Counted from the stretch's first letter, positions 2,119-15,497 are shown. The stretch: 64,000 nt of DNA from Candidatus Aldehydirespirator sp. (GCA_965220645.1 OZ244836.1:2112237-2176236); one strand, 5' to 3'. Notes: generated by a model not told the origin, from the letters alone. Numbers and translations are program-made.

Positions 2119-5100
2119 TCATCGGATGACGAAATGTCGGATCTCTCCCGAATAGTGGACCCCGACTATCAGACTGCCGTTGATCGCGAAGCGGTGCTCC
2201 CAGGCCGTATGGAGTTGCTCGACCAGCCAATTGACTCCGTCGGCCGAACCTATGACCTGCAGCGAGTCGTATGCGTTGTCCGTGTCCAGTCCTTCACCAA
2301 TTCCCACTGCGCCCGGTCCGTCGCCCCACAACCGGATGCGCCAGCGCCCGGGAGGCAGAGGCAATCCAATCGGTTGCCAATTCGACCCCGCCGCGTCGCC
2401 GAGCCACACCTGCGTTCCGGGTTCGTCCTGCCCGGAACCTGCTCGACCGCTGATCGAGGGGCCGGTCACCAGGACTCGGTCCTCTACTGCAAGGAGGCCA
2501 TACAGCCGCGCAGCGGCCCCGGCAGGAGGATCGACGGCCAGCCAGGACGAGCCGTCCGGAGAGTAGAACATAACCGGCCCGGGATCTCCCGGCGCTGGTT
2601 GCCCAGGTTCGTAGAGGTTCGCCAGCGCCACGTATCCGGCGCTGGTTCCGACCACCTGGCAGCAGGTCCCTCCGTCGACCTTGGGCAAGGCGGCTCGAGA
2701 CGGCTCCTCTCCCCAGGTCGCCGACCACACGTCCCCCGACGTCATCCCTGGGGTTGACGTCCGCAGCAGCCATCCGTCCGGCCCGATGGCCACCTGCTCG
2801 GCCCATGTGTCCGCACTCACGCCATGGGGCAGGCCTTGAACAGCAGGCGGGACGATCTCGACGGTCTCCCAGTCGATCAGATCATCGGTGATTGACACAT
2901 AGATTCTGTCGTCCTGCTGCAGGGCGAAGACCAGATGCAGCCCGTCGGACGTCACGTCGTGGATCGGACCTGGACTCGGAGGCACGTCGCCCGCAAGCAA
3001 GCTCTCGAATGGAACCGAGAACGGCTCTGGAGACGTCCAGTCGAGGCCGTCCGCAGAGACCCGCACAACTAATCGAGTACGGTCCCGTGTCCAGAACGTC
3101 CCATCCGTCGGGTGCCCGAACTCCAGGAACCCGTCTCGCCATGGCAATACCGCCGGACCGACTTGATTGCGGATGAAGAAATCGTCATAATGATCGATCC
3201 ATAGTTCGCCGTACGCTTGTCCCAGAAGAAGAGATGTTCGGAATTCGGTGTCCACGGCACATGTGTTCGGGCGAATGACAGCGTCGGAAGGCGCGGGCGT
3301 TTCGTATCGTTCTATGAGGCCGCCTTTGCCGAATGTAAGCAGCGTGTCGCCGTTCACGGCCGTGCCCGTCCAGCCCACGGGAGCCTTGTCGTGCATCATC
3401 AGGCATTCAATCAAACTGGTGCCTTCAGCTAGATCTATCTCGTAGAACTGGGAGCCGTCCGATTCTCCCAACAAGTACAGTGTCGTCTCGCTGCTGGAGT
3501 CCGTGTTGCTCGATCCGTAGATTATCGCGCCATCATTGACGCTGCCGATCTCATACAGCCAGAATTCCTCACCGGCTATAGGTCCGATCTTCTTCCAAGA
3601 CAGACCATCCGATGAGAAGACCAGAGACGCTGGCCCGAACCGCCAAGGAGCATAGCCAGCCTGAGAATGATCGGACAAACCGATATAACCGTCGCTAGTC
3701 GGCGCTATTGAGCAGCATCGGCCACCGACAGGCGGCAATTCGGCTCTGACCGGATCCTCACCCCATGCAGCCACCCAGACGGATCCGAACATCTGCGAGG
3801 TGGGAATATAGGGCTTGTTGCGTAGCAACCCGTCGATTCCGTACTCCAGGTACAAGTCCTGCGTTGTGCCGAGTTCTTCCCAGGAGAAGCGTCTGGTATG
3901 GGGTTCCGCGTCTGCAGATTCGTGATCCTCGTTCGCCGCCCATTCGAACGTGACGCCCTCGCCGTCATAGGCGGTGGGTCTGATCCATGAGGATGATCGC
4001 CTGATCTCCGCGGGCAGCAATGACGGCAAGTCCATGTAGGCGCTCGTCACTGCTTCCAGGAGCCACCCGCCCTGCGAGACGTCCAAGTCAGTGAGATCGA
4101 AGTAGACCTGCAACGATTGGTGCAGGAAGTCGGGCCGGGATATCAGGATCTCGCGCGTATCCCAGTCCGTGAGGTCGTTCGTGACAGAAACGTAGACCCT
4201 GGAATGCGGTGTCGGGCCATCGATCGTATCATCGCTCTCATCGTCGGACCATGCACTCTTATGTGGAGGCCAAGGGACGGCGACCACAAGATGTTCGCCG
4301 TTCGATGCGACATGAACACCGGGTGAGTATGGTGGTTCGATCTGATAATCGTCCCGCCGGATGATGAGGGGTTGGGAGAGGTGCTCGCGAGGAACATCCA
4401 GGGTATCGAAGTCGGTCCACTCAAGGCCGACGGCGGAGAAGCGGAAGAAGAATTGAGATTCATCCCAATACCCGTCGTCGATCATCGGATGACCGACTTG
4501 CAGGAATCCGTCCTTCCAAGGCACTAGCCACGGAGCAATGATCCGCCCGCCGCCGTGATCGTATTCTGCGTCGATGCGGTACGGATTGTAGGTACTCCAA
4601 CTCGTCGAGCTGAAATTCTCGCCATCCTCCTCAAGGACGGATGAGCTATCTAGGTCGTTCGTTTGCGTGTCTGGGCTGTGTAAGTCTTCTGTTGACTCTG
4701 GATCTACCAATAGCTCTGAGTCTTCTGTTGACTCTGAGTCCTCGGCGCCTCCATCCTCAGACTGTGCTTCTTGTGATTCGTAGTCTGCCTCGGGCGTTTC
4801 GGCCTCTGCTGCTTGGTTCTGCTCGACCGGCTCTGTGCTGTCTAGGTCGTCTGTTGGGGTGTCTGTGGCGTCCCTGGGGGTGAGGTCCGCTTCGTCGCGG
4901 GGCTGGACGCTCGCGGTCGTCGTTGCTTCGGCCGTATCGGAGGCGGTCTCGCCCGTCGTGGTCGAACTGCATCCGAGTGCGCCGAGGGGGAGCAGGAATC
5001 CAGGAGCCAATGCGCATAGTGCGGCCACACGCCTCCGAGTTCGGTGGCTGGCTGCGCCCCTCGCAACGGTCGCGCAACGATCGGAGCTGCACGCCACGCT

Positions 5101-5121
5101 CGCATCATAGATGGACCTCAC
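2119..5121 (-). CDS. Large secreted lipoprotein with BNR/Asp-box-like repeats and an internal duplication
   Basis: Lipobox-like signal (LPLGALGCSS) and a long D/E/S/T-rich linker. Two homologous ~400-aa modules follow, carrying SxDGxxW motifs (SADGLDWT, SSDGLSWK, SPDGSSWL, SADGVNWL) and a repeated WG(E)(D/E)P...CC...TS.GY segment. Confidence 0.6.
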   Translation of the reverse strand: MRSIYDASVACSSDRCATVARGAASHRTRRRVAALCALAPGFLLPLGALGCSSTTTGETASDTAEATTTASVQPRDEADLTPRDATDTPTDDLDSTEPVEQNQAAEAETPEADYESQEAQSEDGGAEDSESTEDSELLVDPESTEDLHSPDTQTNDLDSSSVLEEDGENFSSTSWSTYNPYRIDAEYDHGGGRIIAPWLVPWKDGFLQVGHPMIDDGYWDESQFFFRFSAVGLEWTDFDTLDVPREHLSQPLIIRRDDYQIEPPYSPGVHVASNGEHLVVAVPWPPHKSAWSDDESDDTIDGPTPHSRVYVSVTNDLTDWDTREILISRPDFLHQSLQVYFDLTDLDVSQGGWLLEAVTSAYMDLPSLLPAEIRRSSSWIRPTAYDGEGVTFEWAANEDHESADAEPHTRRFSWEELGTTQDLYLEYGIDGLLRNKPYIPTSQMFGSVWVAAWGEDPVRAELPPVGGRCCSIAPTSDGYIGLSDHSQAGYAPWRFGPASLVFSSDGLSWKKIGPIAGEEFWLYEIGSVNDGAIIYGSSNTDSSSETTLYLLGESDGSQFYEIDLAEGTSLIECLMMHDKAPVGWTGTAVNGDTLLTFGKGGLIERYETPAPSDAVIRPNTCAVDTEFRTSLLLGQAYGELWIDHYDDFFIRNQVGPAVLPWRDGFLEFGHPTDGTFWTRDRTRLVVRVSADGLDWTSPEPFSVPFESLLAGDVPPSPGPIHDVTSDGLHLVFALQQDDRIYVSITDDLIDWETVEIVPPAVQGLPHGVSADTWAEQVAIGPDGWLLRTSTPGMTSGDVWSATWGEEPSRAALPKVDGGTCCQVVGTSAGYVALANLYEPGQPAPGDPGPVMFYSPDGSSWLAVDPPAGAAARLYGLLAVEDRVLVTGPSISGRAGSGQDEPGTQVWLGDAAGSNWQPIGLPLPPGRWRIRLWGDGPGAVGIGEGLDTDNAYDSLQVIGSADGVNWLVEQLHTAWEHRFAINGSLIVGVHYSGEIRHFVIR

Positions 5122-5333
5122 CGAGTCTCACAGATCGGCGTCACCGAGGCCAAGACCCCGGAGCCCGGCGCTTCAGAGATGGCCGCCAGCGGTCGCCGTC
5201 TTCGCCGGTGCGCTCGAAGACACCGACACTTGGCGGCGCACCCAAGAACGGTGAGATATCTGCTGAAGCGAGCGGGCTCCTGAGGGCCGTACCTTAGTGC
5301 TGTCAAGGATTTAGGCCATCTGAGGTGGGCTTA

Positions 5334-5347
5334 TCTGATATTGGGAC
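5334..5347. repeat. Left copy of the 14-bp target-site duplication TCTGATATTGGGAC of the IS481-family element
   Basis: Identical 14-mer at 7064-7077. It directly abuts the TGT terminus of the element. Confidence 0.75.
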
Positions 5348-7063
5348 TGTGCTGTCCCGGTACATGCTTGACGCGTTGGCTCCGGTAGGTGTGTTACACC
5401 TTTGGGACGCGGGTCCGGTAGCTGGGCGACACTGGCTCCGGTAGCTGTGTTACACGTGGGTGGTCCGCATTTGGTGGTGCTGAGCCTTCTTCACTTGTGA
5501 CGGCCTGGTCGTCACATGGGAGGGGGTCGTCGTGTTGGTGGAGCTCGGTGTGGTGGAGCAGCGGCATGCGGCGGTGTTGGAGGTGTTGCGCGACGGCGCT
5601 GCGGTGTCTGAGGTGGCACTGCGGTTCGGGGTGACCCGCCAGACGGTGCATCGGTGGCTCAGGCGGTATGCGCAGCGGGGTTTGGCGGGGTTGGCGGATT
5701 CGTCGCCGCGTCCGGGTTCGTGTCCGCACCAGATGCCGCCGGAGGTGGAGGCGCTGGTGGTGGGGTTGCGGCGTGAGAATCCGGGGTGGGGGCCGCGCAC
5801 GTTGTTGTTCGGGCTCGAGGCGCGCGGTGTTCAGCCGTTGCCGGGGCGCTCGTCGGTGTATCGCTGTTTGGTGCGCCATGGGCTGATCCAGCCGCAGGCC
5901 CGCCGTCGCAAGAGATCCGACTACAGGCGTTGGGAGCGCAGCCGGGCGATGGAGCTGTGGCAGATGGATGTGGTGGGCGGGGTGATGCTTGCTGACGGCT
6001 CCAAGGCGTCGATCGTGACCGGGATCGATGACCATTCGCGGTTCGCGGTGTCTGCTTTTGTGGTTGAGCGGGCGACGTCTCGCCCGACGTGTGACGCGCT
6101 GGCGGCGGCGATGCGGGCGTGGGGGGTGCCTGATCAGGTCCTGACCGACAATGCGAAGGTGTTCACGGGCCGGTTCGGGCCCAGCGCCGGCGGTGAGGTG
6201 CTCTTTGATCGGATCTGCAGAGAGAACGGGATCGGGCACCTGTTGACCGCTCCTCGGTCGCCGACGACCACGGGCAAGGTCGAGCGGTTCCACAAGACGC
6301 TTCGACAGGAGTTCCTCACAGGCAAGGTCTTCGAGTCCATCGCAGACGCCCAGGCGCAGCTGGACGGCTGGGTGCGTCACTACAACTTCGAGCGCCGCCA
6401 CCAGGGCATCGGCGACGTGGTGCCGTGGGAGCGGTTCCGCCTAGTCGTCGAGGACCGCCCCGCCGTGCCCGCACGGCCGGCTGCGCCCCAGCTGCCGCAG
6501 GCCCCTACACAACCGTCGGCGACTCGCAAGGTGAGCCGCTCGGGCAAGATCAGCTTCGCAGCCCAGCAATATGCGGTCGGTGTGTGGCTCGCGGGTGAGA
6601 CCGTGGAGGTCACGGTGGACGCGGGGCTGGTCACGATCAGCCACCGCGGCGTCGTGGTAGCCACCCACGCCCAGCGCCACACTCCCGCGAAGGGGGTCAA
6701 GGCTCTGCGCCGCAAACCCAGACCCCTGCGCAGTGCGAGGCCGCGTCAGCCGACGGTGGGCCAGGTGGTGACCCGCAAAGTCGACTCGTCGGGCTGCGTT
6801 TCGTTCGCGGGGGTCAGCTACCGCGCCGGCAGCTCTCATCGGGGCCGCCAGGTCCAGGTCGCCATCGTCGACAACAGCGTGGAGATCACAGCCGGTGGGG
6901 AGGTGCTGCGGGTGCATCCGATCCGCCATGACCGCAGCCGAGAGCACGGCGCGTTCGCCAACGCCGGCGGCCGCCCGTCGCGCATAAACGCCGCCTGAAA
7001 CCTGCGCCAACCTGTAACGCAGCTACCGGAGCCAGCCTGTAACACGGGTACCGGAACTTGACA
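5348..7063 (+). mobile_element. IS481-family insertion sequence (~1.7 kb)
   Basis: Single DDE transposase ORF with termini TGT...ACA. Imperfect subterminal inverted repeats on both ends share CCGGTAC and TGGCTCCGGTAG..GTTACA. Flanked by a 14-bp direct repeat. Confidence 0.8.
5532..6998 (+). CDS. IS481-family DDE transposase (integrase core domain)
   Basis: N-terminal HTH (VSEVALRFGVTRQTVHRWLRRY). DDE triad context WQMDV / LTDNAKVF / ERFHKTLRQE. Typical IS481 N-terminus. Confidence 0.9.
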   Translation: MLVELGVVEQRHAAVLEVLRDGAAVSEVALRFGVTRQTVHRWLRRYAQRGLAGLADSSPRPGSCPHQMPPEVEALVVGLRRENPGWGPRTLLFGLEARGVQPLPGRSSVYRCLVRHGLIQPQARRRKRSDYRRWERSRAMELWQMDVVGGVMLADGSKASIVTGIDDHSRFAVSAFVVERATSRPTCDALAAAMRAWGVPDQVLTDNAKVFTGRFGPSAGGEVLFDRICRENGIGHLLTAPRSPTTTGKVERFHKTLRQEFLTGKVFESIADAQAQLDGWVRHYNFERRHQGIGDVVPWERFRLVVEDRPAVPARPAAPQLPQAPTQPSATRKVSRSGKISFAAQQYAVGVWLAGETVEVTVDAGLVTISHRGVVVATHAQRHTPAKGVKALRRKPRPLRSARPRQPTVGQVVTRKVDSSGCVSFAGVSYRAGSSHRGRQVQVAIVDNSVEITAGGEVLRVHPIRHDRSREHGAFANAGGRPSRINAA

Positions 7064-7077
7064 TCTGATATTGGGAC
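7064..7077. repeat. Right copy of the IS481 target-site duplication TCTGATATTGGGAC
   Basis: Identical to 5334-5347. Its last 6 nt (TGGGAC) are also the first 6 nt of the island att repeat. Confidence 0.75.
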
Positions 7078-7089
7078 GTGGAGCTAAGG
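7072..7089. repeat. attL-type direct repeat TGGGACGTGGAGCTAAGG of the tRNA-Ala island
   Basis: Exact 18-mer repeated at 15418-15435, where it overlaps the tRNA-Ala 3' end. Confidence 0.8.
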
Positions 7090-8215: not shown

Positions 8216-9499
8216 GTGGCGCGCTTGGAGGAGCGGTTCTGGGATTCACAGACGTGGGTGTCGCGCCGGCTGGGGCCTGGTGATGATCCGTCGGGGATCT
8301 TTGGGGCGTTCGTGCCGGATCGGCTCTGTGGATGGTCGCCGACGCTTGCCTCGCGCACTTGGCAGCACACTCGGCTCGCTGAGGACACCGCCAAGGCAGC
8401 TTGCGAGGCGGTGGGTTCTGACGCCATGGGGCATGGGCATTGGCTGCTGGTGCGCCTTGAGAGTGCTGCCTCGAGCCTCATCGAGGGGGTGCAGGTCTCG
8501 CCTCGGCGGCTGGCGCTGGCGGAAGCCGAGATGACCCTGGTCGGCCGAACGCCGCAGCCGCTGGAGTTGGAGGCGATCGGTGATGTAGCCGCCATCGAGC
8601 ACGCTTTGCGTATCGGGGCGGGCTCAGAGCCGGTGACGGTTGAGGATCTGTGTGCGATTCATCGCAGCTTGATTGGTGACGATCCGATCGCCGGTGAGAT
8701 CCGCACCGCTCAGAACTGGATCGGAACCGGATACTCGACGCCGTTGCGGGCCGTGTTCGTGCCGCCACCGCCGGAGCGGGTGCCGGAGTTGGTTGAGGAT
8801 CTGGTCGCTTCGATCAACGAGGACGGACATCCTCCGCTGGTGCACGCCGCGATGGTGCACGCCCAGTTCGAGACGATCCATCCCTTCGCGGACGGCAACG
8901 GCCGCACCGGCCGCGCTGTGATCCAGTTGATGCTGCGCCGAAGGGGCCTGACCACTTCGGCGCTGCCGTTGAGCACGTCTTTGGTGTTTCAACACGCCCG
9001 TTTCTACATCGGCGCCCTCAACGGTGCCCGCGTCGTGTGTGCCGCTGATGACCCGCAGCGCTCAGATGCGCTTGTGGAGTGGGTCATGCTGCTTGCTGAC
9101 GCTGTCCAAACGGCGGCGAGGTACGCCGCTGAAATCGCGTGTGAGGTTGCCGCGATCGGGCACCTCTGGCAAGACCTGCTCACCGACGCGAGCCGTCGCC
9201 ATGGCCACACCACCGCGCGCCTGCTCGATGTGCTCGCGTCTTTTCCGATGCTCACCGTCAAGTGTGCTGCTGAGGTGCTGGGCGCTGATGAGCGCACCAC
9301 CAGGCGCGCCGTCCAGAGACTCTGCGATGCCACCATCCTCGCCCAAGCGGGCACCAGCAAGCGCAACCGCGTCTTTGAGGCCACCGACATCATCGACCTC
9401 CACAACGACAACGTCACCATCAATCCCAGCGGATGGCAGATGGGGCGCCCGCAACGGCGCTGGAACCGCCGACTCGACCACCCCCCGGCACCGGCTTGA
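8216..9499 (+). CDS. Fic family protein (class II, intramolecular inhibitory helix)
   Basis: Canonical Fic motif HPFADGNGRTGR (H222). SSLIEG matches (S/T)xxxE(G/N) about 130 residues upstream. FGAFVPDRL-type N-terminus. Confidence 0.9.
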   Translation: MARLEERFWDSQTWVSRRLGPGDDPSGIFGAFVPDRLCGWSPTLASRTWQHTRLAEDTAKAACEAVGSDAMGHGHWLLVRLESAASSLIEGVQVSPRRLALAEAEMTLVGRTPQPLELEAIGDVAAIEHALRIGAGSEPVTVEDLCAIHRSLIGDDPIAGEIRTAQNWIGTGYSTPLRAVFVPPPPERVPELVEDLVASINEDGHPPLVHAAMVHAQFETIHPFADGNGRTGRAVIQLMLRRRGLTTSALPLSTSLVFQHARFYIGALNGARVVCAADDPQRSDALVEWVMLLADAVQTAARYAAEIACEVAAIGHLWQDLLTDASRRHGHTTARLLDVLASFPMLTVKCAAEVLGADERTTRRAVQRLCDATILAQAGTSKRNRVFEATDIIDLHNDNVTINPSGWQMGRPQRRWNRRLDHPPAPA

Positions 9500-9586: not shown

Positions 9587-10504
9587 ATGCAGTCGCGGCC
9601 GCTGTCATCGGGCAGCTACGAGTTCCTCAAGCGCTTCGTGTTCGGGTCCGAGCGCGCCTGGAACAACGACGCCGCCGTGGGCGACGACGCAGTGGCACGG
9701 GTGCTGCTGTTGGGCGACATCCACGACAACAGCCGCGTGTTCGAGGTGGCCCAGCAGGCCGCTGTCGACGAGGGCTGCGATGTGTTGGTTCAGGTGGGGG
9801 ACTTCTGGTTGCAGGACTCCACATGGCGCGGCTTCGCGCCCGAAGAGGCGGAGCTGATGTGGGCCGCGGTGCATTCGCCGTTACCGGTTGTGGTGGTGGA
9901 CGGCAACCACGAGGTGTGGCCCTGCCTGACGGGATTCCTGCACCGCCCCGAGACTCTCGCCGCTCTACGTCACCACCAGCCGCTGCATCTAGCCGGCTCG
10001 CTGTGGTGGGCTGACCGTGGCAGCACCTGGACATGGTCCAGCCGGCGCTTCGGCGCGCTCGGAGGCACCGTCTCCCCCGACAAGTGGATCCCCGCAGCCG
10101 CAAGGTACCGCTGGGATGAGGAGACCACCACCCAAGAAGACCTCGACCGGCTCATCGACAACACACCCGACGGCCTTGACGTGCTCGTCTGCCACGACGC
10201 GCCTGCCGCCACCCGAGGGTTGGTGAGCGGGTTGCCGTGGAAGATGCCCACGGGCCTCGAACGCCGGGCTGAAGCGGTGCGCGAACTGCTGCAGGAGGCT
10301 GTCGACGCGACCATGCCCGCTTTGGTGTTCCACGGGCATTGGCACCAACAGAACCGCTGCATCATCAACCGCGGCGCCACCGAAGTAGTAGGCCTAGCAG
10401 CCGACGGAGACAGCGGCTGCGCTGCTGTGCTGTCGGTCAGGGACCTGCAAGCCCGCTACGTCGACATCTTCGGCAGAGCCACTCAGGCACGCCTCGGCAT
10501 CTAG
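9587..10504 (+). CDS. Metallophosphoesterase (calcineurin-like)
   Basis: Motifs GDIHDN, VGDFW, DGNHE, CHDAP, GHWH appear in the canonical order. Confidence 0.75.
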   Translation: MQSRPLSSGSYEFLKRFVFGSERAWNNDAAVGDDAVARVLLLGDIHDNSRVFEVAQQAAVDEGCDVLVQVGDFWLQDSTWRGFAPEEAELMWAAVHSPLPVVVVDGNHEVWPCLTGFLHRPETLAALRHHQPLHLAGSLWWADRGSTWTWSSRRFGALGGTVSPDKWIPAAARYRWDEETTTQEDLDRLIDNTPDGLDVLVCHDAPAATRGLVSGLPWKMPTGLERRAEAVRELLQEAVDATMPALVFHGHWHQQNRCIINRGATEVVGLAADGDSGCAAVLSVRDLQARYVDIFGRATQARLGI

Positions 10505-10546
10505 CAGAATGGTAGGCAGGAAGGCTCAGATGGCTAGTGGTGACAC

Positions 10547-11104
10547 ATGTTGAAACGATCTGAGCGAAGGACGATTGCCGCTGAGCGTGAAGAGCAGATC
10601 ATCGAGAACATCCACTCCAACCTGTGGAATGATGACAAGAATGACATCAAGGATGACCTGACCTACGGGGAGGCACTCCTCGAACAATACAAGTTGTATG
10701 TGGAGCTTGCTGACCGCGTGAGTCAACGTCGTGGCGTAGCAAACAGTTTCTTTCTCTTGGTTAACTCCTCAGCAGTTGTGATTCTTGGGAGTCTGGGCGT
10801 GTCGTTCAAAGCGGCATCTCCGTGGCTATTCGTCTTCCCTACAGTCATCCTGATCTGCATTTGTATAGTTTGGTTCTATCTAGTGCGAAGCTACAGCCAA
10901 CTGAATTCTGGCAAATGGAAAGTCGTTGGCGTCATGGAAGAACGGTTGCCTGCCTCCCCCTGGTGGCGAGCCGAGTGGCAAGCGCTAGGAGCAGGGAAAG
11001 ACCGTTCTCTATATTGGCCCCTGACTCATCTAGAGAAATGGGTGCCGCTGGTGTTTGTTCTGCTGTATGCCGGGATGCTAGCGATCGCCTTATGTGTAAG
11101 ATAG
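10547..11104 (+). CDS. Uncharacterised 3-TM membrane protein (candidate effector)
   Basis: 185 aa with a charged N-terminal ~65 aa. Hydrophobic helices FFLLVNSSAVVILGSLGV, WLFVFPTVILICICIVWFYLV and WVPLVFVLLYAGMLAIALCV follow. GC is visibly lower than the flanks. Family not recognised with certainty. Confidence 0.6.
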   Translation: MLKRSERRTIAAEREEQIIENIHSNLWNDDKNDIKDDLTYGEALLEQYKLYVELADRVSQRRGVANSFFLLVNSSAVVILGSLGVSFKAASPWLFVFPTVILICICIVWFYLVRSYSQLNSGKWKVVGVMEERLPASPWWRAEWQALGAGKDRSLYWPLTHLEKWVPLVFVLLYAGMLAIALCVR

Positions 11105-11129
11105 AGGCTGCAACACAGCGATAGAGAAG

Positions 11130-11540
11130 CTACGGGACAAGCTGTCGGATGCAACCGACAATCGAGTCAGTATTCCAATTGGCAATCAGGTCGGCGTCGT
11201 TACGTACCACGGACGAGACGTTCGTTTGTGCGTAAGGCTTTATGCCAAGTACGGGTTTGTTGAAGTAGCGCTTTGCGATATCAAGTTCAATGTTGATCCA
11301 CTTGCTATAGGTTGCATAGACCCCAGCGATCACGAGAACAATCTGAGTGCTGTTCATCTGGCGGATGATCGCATCACGTAAGGCTTGTTGGTTCGGAGCA
11401 TTGTGGATCGGATCGTCTTGTGGTACCGAATAGTTGAGATAGCTGAAGTACGACGCGTTGTCGAGCAAGTTGCAAAGACGAGTGTAGGCGTCTCCATAGC
11501 TCCAAGAATGACTAATGAATAGGTAACGGGTCTTGACCAC
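11130..11540 (-). CDS. TIR-like domain protein (DUF1863/ThsB type), paralog 1
   Basis: 136 aa with YLFISHSW, NYSVPQDDP, IVLVIAG, KWINIE(85)LDIAK, PVLGI. GTG start preceded by AAGGAG. Low GC. Confidence 0.75.
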   Translation of the reverse strand: MVKTRYLFISHSWSYGDAYTRLCNLLDNASYFSYLNYSVPQDDPIHNAPNQQALRDAIIRQMNSTQIVLVIAGVYATYSKWINIELDIAKRYFNKPVLGIKPYAQTNVSSVVRNDADLIANWNTDSIVGCIRQLVP

Positions 11541-11573
11541 TAGGGTCTCCTTTCCCTGTCTGCACTGTAGGCG

Positions 11574-11984
11574 CTAGATCGAATAGTCGCGCATCGCCCG
11601 AACGATGGAAGAGGTATTCCAGCCGACCATGACATCGGCTGCTTCTTGCACAGCGATAGGCGTGCGCCGGTGTCCTCGTGGATTGACGCCAACGATTGGC
11701 TTTCCGAGCTTCTGAGCTATCGATATCTCCTTCTTGATCCATTTTCGATGGTTGGCATACATGCCAGCCAAGATCAAGACACAGTTGACAGGTCGGATTT
11801 GGCGTCTAAGCGCCGCTGTGAGTTTGGCGTCGTTGTTCGCATCTAGGGGGTCGTCCTTTGGGACGGAGTAGTTCCGCGGCTTGAAGTTGGGCGTGGCTCG
11901 AAGCATTCTGACGAGTCGGTCGTACTCGGCGTTATGTGTCCAGGCGTGGCTGATGAACAGGTCGTAGGTCTTCAGTGCGGGCAC
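11574..11984 (-). CDS. TIR-like domain protein (DUF1863/ThsB type), paralog 2
   Basis: YDLFISHAW, NYSVPKDDP, CVLILAG, KWIKKE(86)ISIAQ, PIVGV. About 40% identical to paralog 1 by eye. I place the start at GTG 11984, which gives 136 aa and overlaps the upstream TAG as TAGTG. The ORF-track alternative is ATG 12029. Confidence 0.75.
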   Translation of the reverse strand: MPALKTYDLFISHAWTHNAEYDRLVRMLRATPNFKPRNYSVPKDDPLDANNDAKLTAALRRQIRPVNCVLILAGMYANHRKWIKKEISIAQKLGKPIVGVNPRGHRRTPIAVQEAADVMVGWNTSSIVRAMRDYSI

Positions 11985-12343
11985 TATGGCGTCCTCTCGC
12001 TCTTGCGGTTGTAGGTGGACAGCGCCCACCCCTCGGGGAGCAGCTTCCGCAGCGCCTCTAGCGGGTCTACCCGTTTGAGGGTCATCTTGATGTCCACGTA
12101 AGGGGTGGTGTCGCTCGCCCTTCTCGGGCTGGGGGTTACCCGTCCGTCTGGGCTGACGGCGAGTTCGACGGTGACCTGCTCGGCCTGGTCTGGCGCGGCT
12201 GCGGCGGCTCGGTCGATCTCGGCGGGTAGAGCGGTGGACAGGGAGTCGAATGACATAGCTGTAATGCTACCTCTACCCTCTGACGCTAGCTCCCAATCTT
12301 GCGAACTAATGTTCGCGTCGAGGGGATGCGGTGACGAAGGCAC
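11984..12343 (-). CDS. Small hypothetical protein, translationally coupled to TIR-like paralog 2
   Basis: 119-aa ORF, or 90 aa if it starts at ATG 12256 (MSFDSL...). Its stop TAG overlaps the GTG of the downstream gene. No motif recognised. High GC, unlike the TIR genes. Confidence 0.4.
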   Translation of the reverse strand: MPSSPHPLDANISSQDWELASEGRGSITAMSFDSLSTALPAEIDRAAAAAPDQAEQVTVELAVSPDGRVTPSPRRASDTTPYVDIKMTLKRVDPLEALRKLLPEGWALSTYNRKSERTP

Positions 12344-13991: not shown

Positions 13992-15296
13992 TCAACGACC
14001 TTCGGGATTGTGCCCCGGCCCCTCATTCGTGCTCAAGCCCCACTCCCTCAGGAGCCGCGCCTCGCGTCGCTGCCGCGCCGCTTCTGGACCTGCGACGGTC
14101 GTTCGGCGAACCTCCACGTGCTTGGCCCACTGCTCCATCAGCACCCGCCGCTTCTCGAAGAGGTCGCCCCGCACGTAGGCGGCCTCGGTCTGGTTGCCGA
14201 TGCGGTGGGCGAGAGCGGCCTCGGTGACGGCCCCGGTGGTGTCGGCGCATTCGATGGCCCACGTCTTGAAAGAACTTCGGAAGCCATGCACGGTCGCGGA
14301 GATTCCGTGGTCCCGCAGCGCCTTCAGCAGGGTCTCCGCGGACATCGGGTGGCCTGGGCGCTGCGCGGAGGGGAAGATCAGTCCGCTTCCGTCCCGCACC
14401 CACTTGGCCCTGTCGAGCGCGTCCAGCGCCCCGGTGCTCAGCGGCACCCGGTGAACGATGCGCCGCTTCATGCGCTCCGCGGGGACGGTCCAGACCGCGG
14501 CATCGAGGTCGACCTCGTCCCAAATGGCCTTGCGCGCCTCGCCGGAGCGGACCGCGGTCAGCACGATGAAGTCGATGCAGGCCTTGGTTGCCTCGGTGGC
14601 CTGAGATGACCTGATCGTTGCCAGCGCGTCGGGCACGTCTAGATAGTGAACTGCGGCGAGCGGGGCCTTGGTGCGGGGCTGCGGGGGCAGGGCCGCTGAG
14701 ATCCTCTCGCCGGCGGGGTTGGAGTCGATGAATTCGTGGGCCATTCCCCATCGCATCACCTTCTGGATGCGCTGGCGGACCCGGCGCATGGTTTCGGGAT
14801 TCTCGGTCCACTTGGGTGCCAGGCATGCGATCACGTCACGGGGCTCGATCATGTTCAGCGGCTTGTCCCACAGCGGAGCGGCGTGCAACACGAGACTGTG
14901 CAGCCAGAATTTCGCGTGGTGCTCGCTGCTCCAGCGGGCCCGGTTGAGCGCATGCACCTCCCTGGCTGCTTCGCCGAAGGTCGGCGCCGGCGGGCGGTAA
15001 CGGCCCGTGGCGGGATCGCGACGGGCTTCGGCAGCCTCCCTGCGGTCGCGCGCGAGTTCCCGCGCTCGTGCGAGGCTCACACCTGGATAGGAGCCGAGCC
15101 CGATGTCGCGTCGCTGTCCCGCGACGCTGTAGCGGAGCACCCACGACTTCGACCCAGCGGGCGTCACATTGAGGAACAACCCGTTGCCGTCGGAGTGCCG
15201 GCCGGGCGCTCTAAGGCTCTTTACCGCCAACGCGTTGAGTCTTGAGGCCGACCTGGTGGCTTTGCTCACGCGCCCCCTTTGCCACATTCTTACCAC
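13992..15296 (-). CDS. Tyrosine-type site-specific integrase (P4-like, DUF4102 arm-binding N-terminus)
   Basis: GNGLFLNVTPAGSKSWVLRY N-terminal domain. C-terminal HGFRSSFKTW and AAYVRGD (catalytic Tyr region). Adjacent to the tRNA gene. Confidence 0.9.
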   Translation of the reverse strand: MVRMWQRGRVSKATRSASRLNALAVKSLRAPGRHSDGNGLFLNVTPAGSKSWVLRYSVAGQRRDIGLGSYPGVSLARARELARDRREAAEARRDPATGRYRPPAPTFGEAAREVHALNRARWSSEHHAKFWLHSLVLHAAPLWDKPLNMIEPRDVIACLAPKWTENPETMRRVRQRIQKVMRWGMAHEFIDSNPAGERISAALPPQPRTKAPLAAVHYLDVPDALATIRSSQATEATKACIDFIVLTAVRSGEARKAIWDEVDLDAAVWTVPAERMKRRIVHRVPLSTGALDALDRAKWVRDGSGLIFPSAQRPGHPMSAETLLKALRDHGISATVHGFRSSFKTWAIECADTTGAVTEAALAHRIGNQTEAAYVRGDLFEKRRVLMEQWAKHVEVRRTTVAGPEAARQRREARLLREWGLSTNEGPGHNPEGR

Positions 15297-15380: not shown

Positions 15381-15420
15381 CACCGTATGAGACTCTATGG
15401 CACTCTATGGAACCTTATGG
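15381..15420. promoter_or_regulatory. Four phased 10-bp direct repeats (caccgtatga / gactctatgg / cactctatgg / aaccttatgg), candidate integrase arm-type sites
   Basis: Exact 10-bp periodicity between the int start and the att core. The last unit runs into the att repeat. Confidence 0.4.
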
Positions 15421-15435
15421 GACGTGGAGCTAAGG
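15418..15435. repeat. attR-type direct repeat TGGGACGTGGAGCTAAGG
   Basis: Identical to 7072-7089. Positions 15425-15435 are the 3' end of tRNA-Ala. Confidence 0.8.
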
Positions 15436-15497
15436 GGAATTGAACCCCTGACCTCTTCCATGCCATGGAAGCGCTCTACCAACTGAGCTATAGCCCC
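15425..15497 (-). tRNA. tRNA-Ala (anticodon GGC)
   Basis: 73-nt cloverleaf. Acceptor GGGGCUA/UAGCUCC with G3:U70, anticodon loop AUGGCAU, T-arm AGGGG-UUCAAUU-CCCCU. CCA is not encoded. Confidence 0.9.

Follow-up and report, generated by a model that had tools for sequence, protein, structure and literature searches.

In bacteria, Thoeris systems correspond to the TIR signalling of plants and animals, and so far every new class of Thoeris effector has yielded a new signal-receptor pair. Several described systems come close to the locus analyzed here. In type IV Thoeris, the TIR protein makes N7-cADPR and the effector is a caspase-like protease (Rousset et al., doi 10.1101/2024.10.24.620036). 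More recently, a survey of defence islands for systems that signal through TIR proteins led Yirmiya et al. (bioRxiv, December 2025, doi 10.64898/2025.12.03.692087) to propose 29 types of Thoeris, of which types V to XI were validated. The type V effector ThsF (DUF2270, PF10028) has three transmembrane (TM) helices and in models forms a circular homo-oligomer, with a basic pocket wherever two protomers meet; addition of TIR-made 3′cADPR makes it toxic, presumably through disruption of the membrane (doi 10.64898/2025.12.03.692087). The same study lists a putative effector class called “3TM” (its Table S1 and Fig. 1C), which falls outside the 30 operons that were tested, includes some loci with several TIRs, and has a cluster of TIRs within which a type VII TIR from Pseudohongiella also lies (doi 10.64898/2025.12.03.692087).

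Here we describe a gene for a small membrane protein (the target) that stands beside two ThsB-type TIR genes in a 64,000-nucleotide stretch of a Candidatus Aldehydirespirator genome (the window). Family membership and gene neighborhoods suggest that the 185-residue product is probably the membrane effector of a three-gene, Thoeris-type anti-phage cassette in which a TIR-made signal would lead to membrane damage.

The target gene and its predicted protein

The first-pass annotation of the window had described a 185-residue open reading frame (ORF) at this position, encoding a charged, helical N terminus that runs into two closely spaced TM helices, a W/R-rich loop of about 45 residues, and a third, C-terminal TM helix. 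The ORF is confirmed, with the quoted sequence exact, and a hydropathy scan and an AF2 model agree on the charged N terminus and all three TM helices. The gene ends in a TAG codon at 11102-11104. Homology searches returned 525 homologues of the target at E ≤ 1e-3 (counted as 90%-identity clusters), and a profile search returned 3,488 clusters at 50% identity, 2,098 of them at E ≤ 1e-10, which shows that the ORF is a real gene and not a chance occurrence.

A 19-residue Kyte-Doolittle scan of the protein finds three hydrophobic segments (residues ∼65 to 85, 93 to 113, and 165 to 183), preceded by a charged stretch at residues 1 to 64 (11 K/R, 14 D/E). The loop between TM2 and TM3 (residues 114 to 164) exists much as described, with 5 Trp and 8 K/R, but is 51 residues long rather than 45. 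The AF2 monomer, built from 28 homologues, is all-helical with a mean pLDDT of 81.5 (helices at residues 4 to 26, 37 to 84, 93 to 133, 138 to 146, and 160 to 184); helix 37-84 begins in the cytoplasmic part and continues as TM1, and helix 93-133 comprises TM2 and its cytoplasmic extension. By the positive-inside rule, the N terminus and the long loop are both predicted to be cytoplasmic.

The target shares the low GC content of the TIR genes, as had also been pointed out: GC is 0.49 to 0.54 over positions 10450 to 11650, compared with 0.66 to 0.70 in the flanks, and the low-GC stretch is limited to 10450-11950. The spacing reported for the neighboring genes is likewise exact, with 42 bp between the TAG stop of an upstream metallophosphoesterase gene (10502-10504) and the target ATG, and 25 bp between the target stop and position 11130, where the convergent gene for TIR paralog 1 ends. 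The metallophosphoesterase, which that description had set beside the target, is no conserved partner of it (see below).

Table 1. Features of the window around the target gene, and predicted segments of the target protein
Feature	Position	Strand	Remarks
Left 18-bp direct repeat, TGGGACGTGGAGCTAAGG	7072..7089	.	putative att site
Calcineurin-like metallophosphoesterase, 305 aa	9587..10504	+	42 bp upstream of target; island neighbor
8xMP-family (PF24838) three-TM membrane protein (target)	10547..11104	+	ATG start; 185 aa; predicted effector
TIR paralog 1, ThsB-type, 136 aa	11130..11540	-	predicted sensor and signal synthase
TIR paralog 2, ThsB-type	11574..12029	-	longest ORF 151 aa; public calls: 136 aa, start 11984
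90-aa ORF just upstream of TIR paralog 2	11984..12256	-	possibly an accessory gene, or mere leader/promoter region
Tyrosine integrase of the island, 434 aa	13992..15296	-	Pfam Arm-DNA-bind_3, Phage_int_M, Phage_integrase
Right copy of 18-bp direct repeat	15418..15435	.	overlaps 3′ end of tRNA-Ala
tRNA-Ala	15424-15497	-	
Target protein: cytoplasmic N-terminal helices	residues 1-64		predicted
Target protein: TM1	residues 65-85		predicted
Target protein: outer loop	between TM1 and TM2		predicted; 7 aa
Target protein: TM2	residues 93-113		predicted
Target protein: cytoplasmic loop	residues 114-164		predicted
Target protein: TM3	residues 165-183		predicted

Assignment to the octameric membrane protein family

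Residues 45 to 182 of the target match Pfam PF24838, “Octameric membrane protein family (8xMP)”, at E = 1.7e-38, with a score of 131.9 bits against a cutoff of 30 and with positions 1 to 135 of the 136-position profile covered; all 28 aligned relatives of the target match the same family. The first-pass annotation had instead noted a resemblance to SLATT proteins. That resemblance is not borne out by HMM searches, which gave PF24838 and, for the target, no SLATT Pfam match at E ≤ 1; three TM helices are predicted rather than two, and we reject SLATT membership. The families that the 28 relatives match at E ≤ 10 (25 of 27 listed) include neither SLATT nor DUF2270; HMMER filters are able to mask very weak SLATT matches. 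The target also has no match among PADLOC 2.0 and NCBIfam models, and searches of the PDB by sequence (single and profile) and by fold, and of BFVD by fold, returned nothing significant for it. Some target homologues carry the NCBI label “RipA family octameric membrane protein”; literature searches, whose results were dominated by RIPA buffer, did not trace the origin of the RipA/8xMP name.

Distant 8xMP members are 27 to 54% identical and share a set of invariant or near-invariant positions (in target numbering, Q47, Y48, R61, R62, L70, W109, S115, Y116, L119, N120, K123, E131, L134, P135, E143, W144, L147, E163, P167, and F170). The conserved columns fall within residues 46 to 70 and 109 to 170, nearly all of them in membrane-adjacent cytoplasmic segments and not in the TM cores. 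In the longer members that were checked (244 to 486 aa), we found no second domain or fusion, only the 8xMP domain.

A cassette of three genes on an integrative island

Conserved gene order indicates that the 8xMP gene and the two ThsB-type TIR genes travel as one cassette. Relatives at 78% identity (L001 to L004) have the 8xMP gene and then two convergent 136-aa ThsB_TIR genes, beside type I restriction-modification (R-M) genes. The closest locus in the genome collection, from an Acidimicrobiia MAG (L010, 82% identity), holds the same three genes, and a relative at 55% identity (L005 to L007) holds an 8xMP gene and one convergent TIR gene. DNA similarity between the window and L001 (80%) is restricted to positions 10616 to 12321, in agreement with the low-GC patch, and these limits delineate a unit made up of the 8xMP gene, TIR paralog 1, TIR paralog 2, and ∼300 bp upstream of the latter. 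Sister strain L172 has an IS element between the 8xMP and TIR paralog 1 genes, which has truncated TIR paralog 1 and left 8xMP intact.

The metallophosphoesterase was considered as a further conserved part of the cassette and rejected, since it is not found beside 8xMP elsewhere: other genes lie upstream in relatives, and the DNA similarity to L001 begins only at 10616. Its product matches Pfam Metallophos (3e-10) and, weakly, PADLOC PDC-S10 (8e-8), and its GC content (0.66 to 0.69) is host-like.

Both TIR paralogs are readily recognized by existing models. Paralog 1 matches Pfam ThsB_TIR at E = 1.9e-12 and PADLOC ThsB at 6.5e-9, and paralog 2 matches the same two models at 1.2e-18 and 1e-17; the two proteins are 40% identical. 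The shorter, 136-aa form of paralog 2 is the one called in L173. The glutamate of the WIxxE motif, which from general knowledge of ThsB/TIR enzymes we take to be the catalytic residue, is invariant in the alignment of the TIR clade, both window TIRs included, and the other clade-invariant residues are kept as well. The 90-aa ORF upstream of paralog 2 is called in L172 to L174 and is 76 to 81% conserved in L001, L003, and L004; it is missing from L010 and has no Pfam match.

The cassette lies on an island of 8.3 kb bounded by exact 18-bp direct repeats, the right one at tRNA-Ala and beside the tyrosine integrase gene (Table 1). The island further holds a HipA C-terminal fragment and a SoFic-like Fic protein; no Peptidase_C14 gene was found within it.

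Correspondence with the predicted 3TM class

We compared the window TIRs with 20 TIRs from Table S1 of the preprint. Each paralog has its best BLASTP match in a 3TM row, paralog 1 at 60.8% identity and paralog 2 at 61.1%, and these rows belong to different subclades. The type IV TIR (E. coli 328) reaches 46 to 48% (48% with paralog 1), the type VII TIR ∼40%, and the type VIII TIRs 29 to 37%. Loci L106 and L114 correspond to the Table S1 scaffolds Ga0247841_10000945 and Ga0172380_10000146, with exact matches to the listed 3TM TIR sequences, and the gene that follows the TIR in each encodes a PF24838 protein (E = 2.6e-43 and 1.9e-41, respectively). It is on these two loci that we equate “3TM” with the 8xMP family. 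Like the target, both neighboring proteins carry the motifs EQYK..Y....R.S.RR, SY..LN..K, and RLP....EW.

By these comparisons, the target is assigned to a Thoeris class that had already been predicted. The searched main text and supplementary tables of the preprint mention neither PF24838 nor “8xMP” (doi 10.64898/2025.12.03.692087). What our analysis adds is the equation of 3TM with a Pfam family, the exchange of caspase and 8xMP inside one TIR clade, the pairing of 8xMP with STAND/WD40-fused TIRs in actinomycetes, and the boundaries of the cassette and its island.

Co-occurrence of 8xMP and TIR genes

Starting from the TIR side, we used a profile of the window's TIR clade to fetch 80 metagenome loci. 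Because these loci were picked by similarity to a 3TM-type TIR, the proportions among them are biased to that class: an adjacent 8xMP gene is present in 48 of the 80 (immediately downstream and on the same strand in 44), and a caspase-like gene flanks the TIR in another 25, all of them other than the 8xMP loci. Where at least 650 bp of DNA was available on both sides of the TIR (42 loci), 25 have an adjacent 8xMP gene. The caspase-like genes came to light when the longest TIR-flanking ORF on each side was taken from the 32 loci without 8xMP. Twenty-five of the resulting 41 ORFs encode Peptidase_C14 caspase-like proteases, with the GHG and CHSG caspase motifs in the alignment consensus. With a caspase-like protease beside the TIR in these sister loci, 8xMP fills the slot of a validated effector.

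The view from the 8xMP side is based on the best 80 genome loci, which are mostly from Actinomycetota and provide 94 immediate neighbors. TIR_2 is the commonest Pfam family among these neighbors (17), and ThsB_TIR accounts for 6. TIR counts on this side use HMM searches of all ORFs together with Pfam, because GC3-based gene calling lost low-GC TIR genes; counted in this way, and with L010 and L057 added, a TIR gene lies within ∼600 bp in about 19 of the 80 loci. Four TIR architectures stand beside 8xMP: short ThsB-like proteins; TIR-WD40 proteins of ∼950 aa, in Nocardia, Rhodococcus, and Nocardioides; TIR-nSTAND1-WD40 proteins of ∼1,600 aa, in Cellulomonas; and a TIR domain followed by ∼300 unassigned residues, in Amycolatopsis. 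A 1,396-aa Streptomyces protein is probably also TIR-nSTAND1-WD40, its N-terminal TIR matches being weak.

Among the best 80 loci, a recognizable TIR neighbor is missing from some three in four of the closest actinobacterial 8xMP genes. In nine Nocardia loci, a 476-aa membrane protein without a Pfam match is encoded 16 bp downstream of 8xMP, and in Nonomuraea a 582-aa one. Some members, such as one in Nonomuraea, stand amid ordinary metabolic genes. With many members TIR-free and some among metabolic genes, the family may have other partners or roles.

Pairs of TIR and 8xMP genes extend well beyond actinomycetes. On a plasmid of Polaromonas (Betaproteobacteria), the TIR stop overlaps the 8xMP start, with type I R-M and PIN genes alongside; further pairs occur on a megaplasmid of the archaeon Halorubrum lacusprofundi and in a Saprospiraceae MAG (Bacteroidota). 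Both plasmid-borne pairs stand in defence-gene surroundings.

The first-pass annotation had put the target forward as a candidate abortive-infection effector, and comparative genomics strongly supports an effector role with the adjacent TIR genes through the conserved module, the frequency of adjacency in the TIR clade, the caspase swap, and the match to 3TM. Co-occurrence with TIR genes in other genomes, whose absence it had said would refute the idea, is found from both the TIR side and the 8xMP side.

The same neighborhoods bear on which protein acts last. The TIRs could themselves be NAD+-depleting effectors, a role common among bacterial TIRs, with 8xMP serving as a membrane sensor or regulator that responds to membrane perturbation or DNA injection and activates or localizes them. 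The 8xMP protein is small, has no recognizable enzymatic or pore signature, and resides in the membrane, the first place to register injection; convergent genes do not, moreover, require a one-way signal. We nevertheless consider this reading unlikely. Small stand-alone ThsB-type TIRs of this clade produce signals in types IV, VII, and VIII, and the caspase-like protease that flanks the TIR in 25 sister loci is the established effector of a signal-producing TIR. In actinomycetes, 8xMP pairs with TIR-WD40 and TIR-STAND-WD40 proteins that already hold sensor domains of their own, which argues for 8xMP as effector rather than sensor.

It is very unlikely that 8xMP is an autonomous abortive-infection or toxin-like protein that senses phage cues by itself, with the TIRs a separate module that merely travels along. 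Most actinobacterial members do lack an adjacent TIR, and in the sister strain the IS element truncates TIR paralog 1 and leaves 8xMP intact, as such a reading would have it. Hitch-hiking, however, does not account for how often and how tightly the genes pair (48 of 80 loci in the TIR clade; overlapping stop and start codons in Polaromonas). Moreover, 8xMP is found with four TIR architectures that are unrelated to one another, and the pair occurs in both Bacteria and Archaea. A housekeeping envelope function, to which TIR adjacency would be incidental, is suggested by the NCBI “RipA family” label (if that label means Francisella RipA), by a RipA layout that agrees with the predicted topology, and by the members found among metabolic genes, but is hardly credible for a gene whose cassette is low in GC, was horizontally acquired, and rides on an integrative island. 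The gene also changes context together with its TIRs, has TIR as its top neighbor family, and occurs on plasmids beside R-M and PIN genes.

Proposed mechanism

With 8xMP taken as the membrane effector, the cassette could work as follows. One or other TIR protein would sense infection, and the presence of two divergent paralogs probably broadens the range of triggers, a benefit also proposed for Thoeris loci that encode multiple ThsB proteins. The activated TIR would then turn NAD+ into an ADP-ribose-derived signal. A cyclic ADPR isomer is the most likely product, because N7-cADPR is made by the related TIR of type IV and canonical cADPR by those of types VII and VIII, which lie in the same TIR cluster. 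This signal would bind to 8xMP assembled as a ring-shaped homo-oligomer, on a conserved cytoplasmic face of positive charge that is predicted to consist of the juxtamembrane helix before TM1 (R61/R62) together with the helix and loop after TM2 (K123, E131, and E143/W144). Binding may open or rearrange the three-TM bundle so that the membrane is depolarized or permeabilized, and the infected cell would stop growing or die ahead of phage release (abortive infection). The identity of the signal, the ligand site, the oligomeric state, pore activity, and the defence phenotype are all points that we infer. Counting against the scheme, the effector and TIR genes are convergent in the window's lineage and do not form one operon.

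A broader proposal, which we put forward tentatively and regard as possible but doubtful, is that 8xMP is a general TIR-signal-gated membrane ring, serving small ThsB-type Thoeris systems and, in trans, the very large TIR-WD40 and TIR-nSTAND1-WD40 proteins of actinomycetes. STAND-type TIR proteins are usually viewed as self-contained NADase effectors; here they would be signal generators, and the signal would be a cADPR isomer new to membrane effectors, for example N7-cADPR. Francisella RipA might share the ligand-gated principle of 8xMP.

For the window alone, the outcome is a routine but clean annotation: a small integrative defence island that carries a Thoeris-type cassette. More widely, a large family (∼3,500 clusters at 50% identity) gains a testable role, and the unnamed 3TM class of the preprint gains a Pfam handle. 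The caspase in sister loci, the pairing with STAND/WD40-fused TIRs, and the two divergent TIR paralogs per effector mark the 8xMP class as well suited to identifying the cADPR isomer by which a minimal membrane ring is gated, and the class could also show whether STAND-TIR proteins signal in trans.

Comparison with known systems

The RipA protein of Francisella tularensis is described as a homo-oligomer of the inner membrane whose two cytoplasmic domains are both essential for function, and it is linked to LpxA and lipid A. Its layout is the same as that predicted for 8xMP, a likeness drawn from its description and from the NCBI label. RipA is an envelope and virulence factor, related to intracellular growth and lipid A and without a TIR partner.

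SLATT effectors, such as the Cap15-like proteins of CBASS and ThsH of type VII Thoeris, resemble 8xMP in being small membrane proteins in a nucleotide-signalling defence context. They have two TM helices, however, whereas the target has three, with different conserved motifs.

Among the systems compared, type IV Thoeris supplies the nearest characterized relatives of the window TIRs. The effectors differ in kind, that of type IV being a soluble protease and 8xMP a membrane protein, and N7-cADPR as the signal of 8xMP systems is a guess. Within the TIR clade itself, most loci are co-directional operons in which the TIR gene precedes 8xMP, whereas the window has a convergent 8xMP gene and two TIRs divergent in sequence, in a high-GC actinobacterial genome.

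ThsF of type V belongs to a family with no detectable relationship to the target in our searches: PF10028 gave no match to the target (E ≤ 1) and does not appear in the family list of the 28 relatives (E ≤ 10), and a viral DUF2270 model in BFVD aligned to the target fold only at a non-significant level (Foldseek E = 6.4, TM 0.37). A search from a type V TIR, plasmids included, returned TIRs beside other genes and no DUF2270. The partner TIR clades of the two effectors also differ. In working principle, ThsF is nonetheless the closest validated analogue of 8xMP, each being a small three-TM protein for which a signal-gated ring is proposed.

Island boundaries and cargo

The 18-bp direct repeat TGGGACGTGGAGCTAAGG, present in two exact copies, together with a tRNA-Ala gene and a tyrosine integrase, marks the limits of an 8.3-kb integrative island, and all of the defense and toxin genes discussed here fall inside it. 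The Fic-domain gene and its neighbor, which encodes no HipA domain other than HipA_C, are additional defense or toxin cargo. The stretch separating the integrase from the TIR genes holds a gene whose hydrophobic product is probably a multi-TM protein, without match in Pfam, NCBIfam, or PADLOC; its GC content is host-like, as is that of the metallophosphoesterase gene. The latter is not kept beside 8xMP (the predicted three-TM effector) at other loci, and a role as hydrolase of an ADPR-type signal is pure speculation.

Features of the island and its margins (window coordinates)
Feature	Position	Strand	Remarks
Three 23-nt direct repeats	5377-5455		Immediately 5' of transposase
IS-type transposase, 488 aa	5532-6998	+	Just outside left island repeat; rve-like per public gene calls in locus L173
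18-bp repeat, left copy	7072-7089		
HipA_C-only protein, 246 aa	7442-8182	-	Pfam HipA_C, from profile position 35; adjoins Fic gene
Fic-domain protein	8216-9499	+	PADLOC SoFic match, 1.7e-60
Calcineurin-like metallophosphoesterase	9587-10504	+	PADLOC PDC-S10, weak match (8e-8)
90-aa ORF	11984-12256	-	End coincides with 136-aa start of TIR paralog 2
Hydrophobic protein, 347 aa	12720-13763	+	Probable multi-TM
Tyrosine integrase	13992-15296	-	Beside tRNA-Ala and right repeat copy
18-bp repeat, right copy	15418-15435		
tRNA-Ala(ggc)	15424-15497	-	3' end overlapped by right repeat copy

In a sister strain of the source organism (L172), an IS3-like element (HTH_Tnp_1 plus rve, 4559-6350) lies between 8xMP and TIR paralog 1, reducing the latter to a 94-aa fragment, and a second IS separates the Fic and metallophosphoesterase genes; these insertions are a natural decay of the cassette. 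The 90-aa ORF upstream of TIR paralog 2 has no Pfam match; it is 76 to 81% conserved in three relatives carrying the cassette (L001, L003, L004) and missing from the Acidimicrobiia MAG locus L010. An accessory function for this ORF is possible, but the conserved sequence could equally be just a leader.

Neighbors of 8xMP at other loci

Two proteins without Pfam match directly follow 8xMP on the same strand and may be unrecognized partner enzymes: a conserved 476-aa membrane protein in Nocardia, ∼16 bp downstream (L013, L019, L020, L024-L026, L028, L032, L086), and a 582-aa protein in Nonomuraea (L008/L009/L017 6577-8325).

On the archaeal plasmid pHLAC01 of Halorubrum lacusprofundi (L176, 1-3151), the TIR and 8xMP pair lies next to another TIR gene as well as a gene with an adenylate/guanylate cyclase domain.

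Elsewhere, 8xMP adjoins large TIR-fused sensor proteins, namely, TIR-WD40 (L033, L038, L044, L056, L057, L061, L066, L070, L082), TIR-nSTAND1-WD40 (L043, L088), and TIR with an unassigned region (L074, L076). Hosts include Nocardia, Rhodococcus, Nocardioides, Cellulomonas, and Amycolatopsis, and probably also Streptomyces (L043), where the TIR domain is weakly supported. The adjacency is a hint that the target of signaling by STAND/WD40-TIR proteins may be a membrane effector distinct from them.
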